A stretch of DNA of 64,000 bases from contig JAFTPS010000013.1 in NCBI GenBank assembly GCA_017463185.1, positions 3,826 to 67,825 on the forward strand, given 5' to 3'. The notes beneath the pieces were generated by a model. It saw nothing but the letters and a program-made list of their open reading frames with translations, ran no database searches and was not told the DNA's origin. Source of the DNA: Alphaproteobacteria bacterium (GTDB taxonomy: Bacteria > Pseudomonadota > Alphaproteobacteria > Rs-D84). The number at the start of each line of letters is the position of its first letter. Position 1 is the stretch's first letter. Made by a program: the position numbers and the translations under genes. Shown piece by piece: positions 44,330 to 44,603 of the stretch.

Positions 44330-44358
44330 TTGAAAAAGTGGGGGCGGGGTGCTATAAT
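44330..44358 (+). promoter_or_regulatory. Sigma70 promoter (TTGAAA-17-TATAAT) for leader copy B
   Basis: ttgaaa at 44330-44335, tataat at 44353-44358. Confidence 0.6.
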
Positions 44359-44364
44359 GCGAGT

Positions 44365-44603
44365 GTCAACGGGATTTTTCGTTGATGGGGTGTGAGAACC
44401 CGGGCAACAAGCGTCTATGGATGAAGTAAGGGGCGCGCCATTTTATGGGCGTGTTTTTTGTGTCATAGATGAACAGAAAACTCCTGACCACTGGTCAGGA
44501 GGGCTTGCGATATATATAAATAAGCAGCACAATACTTGTTGATTGTTCTCAACCTCCTGACCGTCTGAAATTATTCGGCGGTTTTTCTATTGGGGGAAAT
44601 AAA
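44365..44603 (+). promoter_or_regulatory. Conserved structured 5' leader, copy B (homolog of 14973-15218)
   Basis: Core at 44477-44588: CUCCUGACC-acu-GGUCAGGAG, a conserved AU-rich middle, then CCUCCUGACCGUC with a terminator-like hairpin and U-run. The RBS ggggga and ATG at 44604 follow. Confidence 0.55.

Follow-up and report, generated by a model that had tools for sequence, protein, structure and literature searches.

The DNA considered here, referred to as the window, is a stretch of 64,000 nucleotides (nt) from an Alphaproteobacteria bacterium (Rs-D84; assembly GCA_017463185.1, contig JAFTPS010000013.1, positions 3,826-67,825, forward strand), and all coordinates given below are positions within it. 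On its forward strand, at 44330-46622, a promoter is followed by a structured RNA leader, a predicted intrinsic terminator and two genes whose products carry signal-peptide-like N-termini (Table 1). The leader at this locus, designated copy B, has the limits assigned to it in a preliminary description of the window, which coincide exactly with the −35 hexamer and the base before the ATG. The first gene encodes a small protein of 67 amino acids (aa), and the comparison across related genomes that had been proposed earlier finds the leader upstream of its orthologues (42-50% identity) in five other metagenome-assembled genomes (MAGs). The second gene, which is probably co-transcribed with the first, encodes a protein described earlier as built from 31-aa repeats; ten repeats of 29-31 aa with the pattern ..IPENLFAGI.GAP...F..TF.. 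are present in it, and its self-identity reaches 0.21 at a lag of 31, the top value of all lags. Orthologues of this large protein lie downstream of the small gene at loci L006, L008, L034, L039, L047 and L052 of the working numbering used here.

A second copy of the leader, copy A, lies on the reverse strand of the window upstream of a gene for a Cys-rich protein, and the earlier view that the two are the same element in opposite orientation is borne out by their alignment at full length, with ~90% identity over the 3' ~110 nt and a weaker, still alignable match over the 5' ~120 nt. Given covariance-model scores above 100 bits (105 for copy B and 102 for copy A), predicted-fold z-scores of -5.2 and -7.6, respectively, and an expectation of 0.00 occurrences of the 20-nt palindrome of hairpin H1 in shuffles of the window, this likeness is not attributable to chance. 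The terminator stems differ in sequence yet pair in both copies, as had been read earlier (ACCGUCAA/UUGACGGU in copy A and ACCGUC/GGCGGU, including one G.U pair, in copy B), and a U-run follows each of them.

Homologues were collected in one scan of an exact H1 pattern against 185,579 species genomes, which returned 66 loci; about 35 of these hold the whole element, with the third segment 46-59 nt after H1, and all of them are located in gut alphaproteobacterial MAGs, comprising Candidatus Enterousia, RGIG bins from sheep, goat and deer, and two Bacteroidota-labelled bins (taxon labels as deposited). The leader-bearing contigs of the latter (L025, L028, L031, L037 and L045 in CAZJGX01, Muribaculaceae; L032 in JAMPCO01, Prevotella) are probably the result of mis-binning, and L025 is an 8-kb locus with three leader copies. 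A scan of metagenomes, anchored on GGGGTGT and the loop of hairpin H2 and leaving the three segments seg1, seg2 and seg3 free, yielded 23 further gut-derived copies, and 17 of its 41 pattern matches were chance AT-rich sequences. In all, about 80 copies of the family were recovered (Candidatus Enterousia/Rs-D84 gut MAGs, gut metagenomes and one phage contig). Their common layout consists of a sigma70-type promoter, which lies at a fixed distance from hairpin P1 in 31 of 32 homologues, a structured leader of ~220 nt, a predicted intrinsic terminator and, 18-130 nt beyond it on the same strand, a Shine-Dalgarno sequence (SD) and an ATG. In 57 aligned copies the leader is conserved at its full length.

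The structure of the leader is supported by the covariation of its helices, which was counted for H1, H2, H3 and the terminator hairpin T2 in 48 copies, including divergent ones found with the covariance model R1, and for P1, the long-range helix and nucleotide conservation in the alignment of 57 full-length leaders. H1 is 99.1% paired, with compensatory changes at 7 of its 9 pairs; the corresponding values are 99.5% and 5 of 5 for H2, 98.3% and 4 of 5 for H3 (once divergent copies are included), and 97.5% and 3 of 6 for T2, and all 7 pairs of P1 show compensatory changes. The second strand of H1, seg2, has an alternative partner in seg3, with which it forms a putative antiterminator of 10 base pairs (bp); in an alignment fitted to the competing fold, this helix reaches 97.9% pairing and shows compensatory changes at 6 of its 10 pairs, and pairing falls to just 33-52% when the 3' partner is slid by 1-3 columns. 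The antiterminator shares ACC/GACC with the 5' arm of T2. Across at least five sequence classes (Table 1), seg1, seg2 and seg3 covary three ways, so that a change in seg2 is accompanied by changes in both partners, and it is this three-way covariation that supports the seg2:seg3 pairing on an alignment fitted to H1 and, with it, the alternative pairing suggested earlier. At the level of the aligned sequences, compensatory substitutions show that every helix, including both alternatives of seg2, is kept under selection. The earlier argument for selection on structure rather than recent copying is strongly supported by the roughly 80 homologues, which span at least 20 species-level MAGs plus gut metagenomes and keep their helices by compensatory changes.

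The fold of the full-length alignment also exposed a long-range helix, in which the linker that separates H3 from seg3 is the complement of what appears to be the loop of the local hairpin P2. In the 57 leaders this helix of 7 bp is 99.5% paired, with 5 of 7 pairs compensatory and 106 compensatory cells. Its 5-nt core varies from copy to copy like a code (GAGAA/UUCUC in copy B, AGUAA/UUACU in copy A), and 22 distinct sequences of the code-complement linker were counted. Cognate code strands form duplexes with a mean energy of -8.2 kcal/mol; with permuted partners the mean is -2.7 +/- 0.3 kcal/mol, and 0 of 5000 permutations were as good. The adjoining GGGG can pair either locally with CCYC, which forms P2 and makes the code helix a pseudoknot, or with the CCUC of seg3, which extends the code helix into a nested closing helix of 11-13 bp; the local P2 pair at alignment columns 31-44 is GC in 33 leaders, GU in 20 and AU in 4. 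Two copies are exceptions to the code: at L014 (286-508, reverse strand) seg3 is deleted or decayed (GCCUCCAACC) and the code helix is non-complementary, and at L093 (3987-4206, reverse strand) a P2 loop GAAGA faces a linker CGUU, leaving the code mismatched. Decay, recombination or a chimeric assembly may account for each of them. The conserved 5' domain and its long-range helix to seg3, together with three divergent copies in the window and a copy on a phage, go beyond the preliminary description.

Conservation extends to unpaired positions. Among the 57 leaders, the GGUUU of T2 and the AAUA of the H2 loop are invariant, and the CGUC and the U-run of the long hairpin P3 are nearly so; the invariant unpaired nucleotides of class a comprise the UG after GGGG, the A before seg3, the G after seg2, the GA..AAUA of the H2 loop and GCGUC. 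The conserved motif of the H2 loop reads GAAUAU..AAUAA, with the version GAUAUAUAUAAAUAAG in copy B. Several further candidates were rejected: a promoter inside the leader (TTGCGA-17-CACAAT), whose supposed −35 hexamer is the covarying 5' strand of H2; a kissing interaction between the P1 and H2 loops (UUC/GAA), in which the P1 loops vary while the H2 loop is constant; a partner of seg1 in the 5' domain, for which the GUCAG of some P2 loops is not conserved; and an extension of the long-range helix into H3 proposed by alifold, to which the sequences lend no support. On the antisense strand, 44472-44501 (H1 and the A-tract upstream of it) forms a perfect intrinsic terminator pattern, which recurs at the same site in other copies; it could keep antisense transcripts out of the leader, or it could simply follow from the A-richness of the linker.

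Taken as a whole, the leader is best read, with a probability of roughly 70%, as a new family of cis-acting conditional transcription attenuators that combine an anti-antiterminator, an antiterminator and a terminator and are organized by a long-range helix. A constitutive-looking sigma70 promoter would start an RNA of ~220 nt in which, from 5' to 3', P1, P2a (GGGG), the 7-nt code strand, P2b (CCYC), P3, an A-rich linker, seg1, seg2, H2, H3, the code complement, seg3 and the terminator emerge in this order. In the proposed OFF fold, seg1 and seg2 would form H1, the code helix would run on into GGGG:CCUC of seg3 as a long-range closing helix, and the 3' end of seg3 would form T2, so that transcription would halt before the gene. 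In the proposed ON fold, seg2 and seg3 would close a junction holding H2, H3 and the code helix, the last being a pseudoknot on the local P2; T2 would lose its 5' arm, and RNA polymerase would read into the genes for exported proteins. An effector (a ligand, a protein or a physical or kinetic signal) would tip the balance at the conserved unpaired nucleotides and the junction. Termination is probably the default, with read-through induced by something that favors seg2:seg3. We infer termination at T2, the OFF state as default, the direction of regulation, the existence of an effector and switching itself, and we infer likewise that the leader controls the downstream genes, as had been stated earlier.

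Table 1. Features of the leader loci, neighboring genes and segment classes in the window (aa, amino acids; ORF, open reading frame; TM, transmembrane).
Feature	Position	Strand	Description
Copy B leader including promoter	44330-44603	+	−35 hexamer through the last base preceding the ATG (44604)
Copy B promoter	44330-44358	+	sigma70-type; −35 TTGAAA, 17-nt spacer with TG extension, −10 TATAAT; 11 of 12 consensus matches
P1	44365-44386	+	hairpin at the 5' end of the leader (predicted fold)
P2a	44387-44390	+	GGGG, then UG and the code strand
Code strand	44393-44399	+	U-GAGAA-C, 5' strand of the long-range helix/pseudoknot; pairs with 44545-44551
P2b	44399-44402	+	CCCG; local pairing with GGGG possible
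P3	44411-44471	+	long irregular hairpin (predicted folds and alignment)
P3 base	44411-44415/44468-44471	+	conserved GCGUC paired to ...GAUG; covaries by eye (GCAUC/GGAUG, GCGCU/GGCG, GCACC/GGUG)
P3 inner hairpin	~44430-44453	+	G+C-rich; U-run 44454-44459 next, possible pause site
Linker	44472-44480	+	A-rich, single-stranded (alignment)
H1	44481-44501	+	putative anti-antiterminator hairpin, seg1:seg2 across a 3-nt loop
seg1	44481-44489	+	CUCCUGACC; pairs with seg2
seg2	44493-44502	+	GGUCAGGAGG; pairs with seg1 or seg3
H2	44503-44528	+	hairpin with covarying stem GCUUGC/GCAGC
H3	44529-44546	+	hairpin ACAAU/AUUGU, variable loop
Code complement	44545-44551	+	G-UUCUC-A, 3' strand of the long-range helix; pairs with 44393-44399
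seg3	44553-44562	+	CCUCCUGACC; putative antiterminator with seg2, or 5' CCUC to GGGG 44387-44390 and 3' ACC into the terminator
T2	44560-44586	+	predicted intrinsic terminator; ACCGUC 44560-44565, 11-nt loop, GGCGGU 44577-44582, U-run to 44586
SD	44592-44597	+	GGGGGA, before ORF 44604-44807
Small protein ORF	44604-44807	+	67 aa, signal-peptide-like N-terminus
Repeat protein ORF	44829-46622	+	597 aa, signal-peptide-like N-terminus, ten repeats
Copy A	15003-15253	-	promoter TTGCAT-17-TAGAAT, same leader and terminator; 102 bits
Copy A gene	14340-14972	-	210-aa Cys-rich protein, hydrophobic signal-peptide-like N-terminus
Copy C	8964-9248	+	divergent, class e segments; long-range helix UUAGAA/UUCUAA; 56 bits, model R2
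Copy C ORF	9266-9628	+	120 aa, signal-peptide/TM-like
Copy D	48630-48836	+	divergent, class c segments; long-range helix UUACAA/UUGUAA, short P3; 64 bits, model R2
Copy D ORF	48849-49118	+	89 aa with TM segment
Copy E	48354-48551	-	divergent, class d segments; long-range helix UUGAAC/GUUCAA; 52 bits, model R2
Copy E ORF	48210-48353	-	47 aa, hydrophobic
Segment class a			seg1 CUCCUGACC, seg2 GGUCAGGAGG, seg3 CCUCCUGACC
Segment class b			seg1 CUGCCAACC, seg2 GGUUGGGGG, seg3 CCCCAACC
Segment class c			seg1 CCUCUAACC, seg2 GGUUGGAGG, seg3 CCUCCAACC
Segment class d			seg1 GUCCCGAC, seg2 GGUCGGGAU, seg3 UCCCGACC
Segment class e			seg1 CACCCGGAC, seg2 GUCGGGGUG, seg3 CACCCCGAC
Large protein, no leader	39794-43687	+	1297 aa, surface-type, weak ankyrin match
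Large protein, no leader	32840-36136	-	1098 aa, surface-type, OmpA-family
Signal-peptide protein, no leader	13224-14168	+	314 aa
tRNA (Rfam)	10063-10136	-	
tRNA (Rfam)	47871-47941	-	near copies D and E
Small ORF	48107-48253		near copies D and E
Alpha operon ribosome-binding-site leader (Rfam)	31568-31656	+	38 bits, exactly at threshold
Ribosomal protein operons	15.5-32 kb		together with the rpsL-rpsG-fusA operon
Choloylglycine hydrolase family gene	46646-47725	-	
Glycosyltransferase cluster	59-63.4 kb		

The energetics of the two folds can be reconciled with such a switch. The OFF fold is nested and is the minimum-free-energy structure, computed without pseudoknots, in 5 of 5 window copies and 50 of 52 leaders; forcing seg2:seg3 costs on average 7.6 kcal/mol with a transcript ending at seg3 and 11.3 kcal/mol at full length, and this model leaves out the code helix of the ON fold, worth about -8 kcal/mol. 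Since the forcing cost is close to the value of the uncounted helix, the two folds would be roughly balanced at the decision point, and a near-balance of this kind, as modeled, is what a switch requires. Several observations weigh against the attenuator reading. Termination, read-through and the transcription start site are all read from sequence; the OFF fold wins in the pseudoknot-free model, with which a purely structural role, or constant termination of the transcript, is compatible; and most class-a copies were retrieved by an exact match to H1, which leaves the model-found copies, in an alignment itself fitted to H1, as the sole source of H1 variation. Local and seg3 pairing of GGGG are both possible in every copy and the data fit either, and both may be used. 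In addition, the last hairpin of copy D (CCAC..GUGG; 48826-48848) is followed by AAUUAAAC-GGAGAG-AUG with no U-run, which rules out intrinsic termination for that copy; copy D may be decayed or act at another level. Copies C and E keep the architecture and lack the conserved nucleotides of the H2 loop and junction, which makes a single shared ligand pocket less likely.

Within the attenuator reading, the nature of the effector can be envisaged in three ways, of which a small molecule and a protein rank about equal and a purely kinetic device ranks lower. The invariant unpaired nucleotides of class a fit a ligand or a protein. One tentative proposal is a new class of riboswitch for a small molecule or second messenger, in which either the junction of seg2:seg3, H2, H3 and the code helix or the closed long-range fold would bind the ligand: the large pseudoknotted fold with its invariant unpaired nucleotides in 57 class-a leaders, the many copies per very small genome (5 in 64 kb; the order Rs-D84, to which Enterousia belongs, has genomes of 0.75-1.0 Mb, PMC12306168), a distribution resembling a riboswitch regulon, and the lack of a conserved leader peptide all agree with it, whereas the state of copies C and E speaks against it and the regulated genes offer no metabolic clue. 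A precedent for the theme exists in Clostridioides difficile, where cyclic di-GMP (c-di-GMP) riboswitches control surface proteins. The furthest-reaching form of this proposal, that a new riboswitch class or effector-sensing RNA globally gates the exported Cys-rich surface proteome of Rs-D84/Enterousia through three-strand exchange and a bar-coded helix on a phage-mobile cassette, is no less tentative. A trans-acting RNA-binding protein at the H2 loop and junction, stabilizing either H1 (more termination) or seg2:seg3 (antitermination), is conceivable to a barely lower degree. The three-hairpin logic matches that of protein-controlled attenuators, such as the PyrR system with its anti-antiterminator, antiterminator and terminator hairpins; the two AAUA-type repeats of the H2 loop (GAAUA..GAAUA) form a candidate protein site, and a global regulator would suit a reduced genome. 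However, no candidate regulator was found in the window, including a Pfam search of 20 further ORFs, the divergent copies lack the H2 motif, and no known protein-binding RNA family matches, the PyrR match being far below threshold and on the wrong strand. A device free of any specific effector, set by a kinetic or physical balance (nucleoside-triphosphate-dependent pausing at the U-run of P3, Mg2+, temperature, or chaperones and helicases), is rather doubtful; the architecture is the only feature common to all classes, a nearly invariant U-run follows the G+C-rich hairpin within P3, and the folds are near-balanced at the decision point, but a purely kinetic device would have no need of specific, strongly conserved unpaired nucleotides such as those of class a. 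The preservation of architecture alone in copies C and E is in keeping with an input of a kinetic or physical kind, or with more than one effector.

Explanations outside the attenuator reading are all improbable, to differing degrees. A stand-alone small RNA (sRNA) of ~220 nt ending at T2, which would act in trans or as a protein sponge with gene expression as incidental read-through, is unlikely: a strong promoter, an own terminator and many near-identical copies per genome are in keeping with it, but an SD and an ATG are always present within the next 18-130 nt in the same orientation, no sign of a second promoter is seen, the type of downstream gene is consistent, and a conserved antiterminator would be pointless for a plain sRNA. 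Ribosome-mediated attenuation of the trp type, in which translation of a leader peptide across seg1 would choose between H1 and seg2:seg3, can draw on a 41-codon ORF of copy B through seg1 (44417-44542) and on a UGA within seg1 at which short ORFs end in some copies. A comparison of 32 leaders, however, found no ORF conserved in start, frame, end or sequence, an SD on almost none of the leader ORFs, and no such ORF at all in L062, and the leader peptide is thereby effectively refuted, which makes this mechanism very improbable. The H1 region is also, as DNA, a perfect palindrome with 9+9-bp half-sites (CTCCTGACC-N3-GGTCAGGAG) and a further repeat 50 bp downstream, and it might be the operator of a dimeric repressor with a third half-site or a phase-variation inversion site, invertible promoters often driving surface genes in gut bacteria. 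This is the least probable reading of all, as the segments change completely between classes with complementarity kept, H2, P1 and the long-range helix covary as RNA including G.U pairs, the palindrome lies 120 nt downstream of the promoter, and no flipped variants occur among the ~80 copies.

The genes downstream of the leader are in line with the regulon of surface or secreted factors suggested earlier. Signal-peptide-like N-termini (a hydrophobic segment) were found in 34 of 35 first downstream ORFs, about 20 of which have a Cys content of 4-10%, and the readable downstream ORFs among the 23 metagenome copies are likewise signal-peptide-like. Two gene sets recur. One is the pair of copy B, with the small secreted protein ahead of the large repeat protein, which at least seven MAGs contain; the other comprises Cys-rich proteins resembling that of copy A. 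Searches in Pfam, NCBIfam and PDB sequences assigned none of the downstream proteins to a family. The 67-aa protein and its orthologues (L004, L006, L008, L039 and L047) share the motif ..YV....V..KVDT.A.A.Q.MAG.YTV.G.., with a longer variant in L008, and the motif recalls phage tail-fibre-like repeats, which we take to be a resemblance only. Three large proteins of the exported or outer-membrane type in the window lack a leader, so that only part of the surface proteome is marked by it.

A genuine leader copy, scoring 81 bits, is present on the phage contig IMGVR_UViG_3300010163_000459 (L108 9872-10490), whose genes, assigned by PHROGs, include a DnaB-like helicase, the large terminase subunit, a head-tail adaptor and a CI-like repressor. 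It precedes a Cys-rich signal-peptide protein homologous to the protein of copy A (BLASTP E = 4e-13), and the cassette is oriented opposite to the flanking structural genes in the manner of a moron. The joint presence of the leader and the homologue of the copy A protein on a phage indicates that the cassette moves as a unit.

A census with the covariance model R2, run with filters off, found exactly five leader copies in the window (A-E); the E-values of the covariance models are rough owing to a short calibration, and the bit scores, 31-117, are unaffected by it. The seg1, seg2, seg3 and code sequences of copies C, D and E are wholly different and their architecture is unchanged. An assignment of the copy C gene as a VirB2/TrbC-like pilin was a guess to which Pfam, NCBIfam and PDB sequence searches lend no support. 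Copies D and E lie back to back near a tRNA and a small ORF, and this region, for which Pfam gives no support, may be the edge of an integrated element. Elsewhere, the window contains ribosomal protein operons, an Alpha operon leader matched by Rfam, a second tRNA, a choloylglycine hydrolase family gene and a glycosyltransferase cluster (Table 1).

Rs-D84/Enterousia are uncultured gut bacteria in which gene regulation is almost unstudied. If the attenuator reading is true, this one RNA device, standing before the genes of many exported proteins specific to the lineage, would be the main known regulatory system of these bacteria and a direct handle on the remodeling of their surface towards host or partner cells. 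The leader occurs five times in the 64-kb window, several times per MAG fragment and once in a phage contig. The leader further provides a clean natural example of three-way covariation, in which one strand chooses between two partners, and its unusual features are the third competing strand, a long-range helix bar-coded for each copy and a regulon of exported orphan proteins. The copy-specific 5-nt code core perhaps keeps paralogous leaders from mispairing. A covariance model of the family would flag genes for exported proteins that at present have no Pfam or NCBIfam assignment, and the family can be regarded as an orphan-effector RNA.

Searches of Rfam 15 (4227 covariance models), covering the whole window at the gathering threshold and copies A and B at E<=10, returned nothing relevant; copy B had only a chance snoRNA match of 9.7 bits, and the nine matches of copy A were all well below threshold. 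The literature searched on Enterousia RNA elements and on leader sequence strings likewise contained nothing relevant. Among known systems, the leader resembles phage morons and the lambda PR'-tR' region in having a self-contained promoter, a short terminated transcript and a gene, with one copy inserted in opposite orientation among phage structural genes. Antitermination of the Q type relies on a DNA site and sigma-dependent pausing and not on conserved alternative RNA helices, whereas the RNA helices of the leader covary. The dual hairpins targeted by ANTAR proteins have tandem hexaloops with A at position 1 and G at position 4, the second hairpin overlapping the terminator; by inspection of the alignment, the H2 loop of the leader has at least 14 nt, the H3 loop is variable at 6-9 nt, and neither hairpin overlaps the terminator. 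With trp-type attenuation, the leader shares four segments with 1:2, 2:3 and 3:4 pairings and an intrinsic terminator, but it has no conserved ORF or SD, places two hairpins between segments 2 and 3 and adds a long-range helix. T-box leaders are similar in length (~200-250 nt), in having several stems followed by competing antiterminator and terminator folds, and in the many copies per genome; however, the T-box sequence, specifier loop and Stem I motifs are missing from the leader, copies A and B have no RF00230 match at E<=10, and the genes concerned are unrelated to amino-acid supply.

The closest likenesses are to two other groups. As in the ZTP/pfl and c-di-GMP-I/II riboswitches, a remote 3' strand beside the terminator serves as the pairing partner of a structured 5' domain, and there are invariant unpaired nucleotides and many copies per genome; unlike in these pseudoknot riboswitches, an extra competitor, seg1, is present, which is unusual, and divergent copies lose the conserved nucleotides. 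None of the riboswitch models of Rfam 15 (including c-di-GMP-I/II, ZTP, Mn2+, Mg2+, guanidine, preQ1) matched the leader at E<=10. As in the pyr attenuators of Bacillus, a cis-acting leader lies directly behind the promoter, the 5' strand of the antiterminator is locked up in a 5' hairpin, and its 3' strand overlaps the terminator stem. In contrast to the pyr system, the leader has no PyrR-binding consensus (the only RF00515 match, 17.2 bits against a gathering threshold of 54, is to the opposite strand of copy A, with none in copy B), its putative antiterminator closes a junction with two conserved hairpins, its 5' domain of 120 nt is tied in by a covarying long-range helix, and it precedes genes for exported proteins rather than pyrimidine genes. 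The logic of the leader is thus nearest to that of the PyrR-type three-hairpin attenuators and of riboswitches with a long-range pseudoknot or closing helix, and it is a member of neither these nor any of the other systems; it may be filed as a new RNA family within the known kind of terminator/antiterminator leaders.

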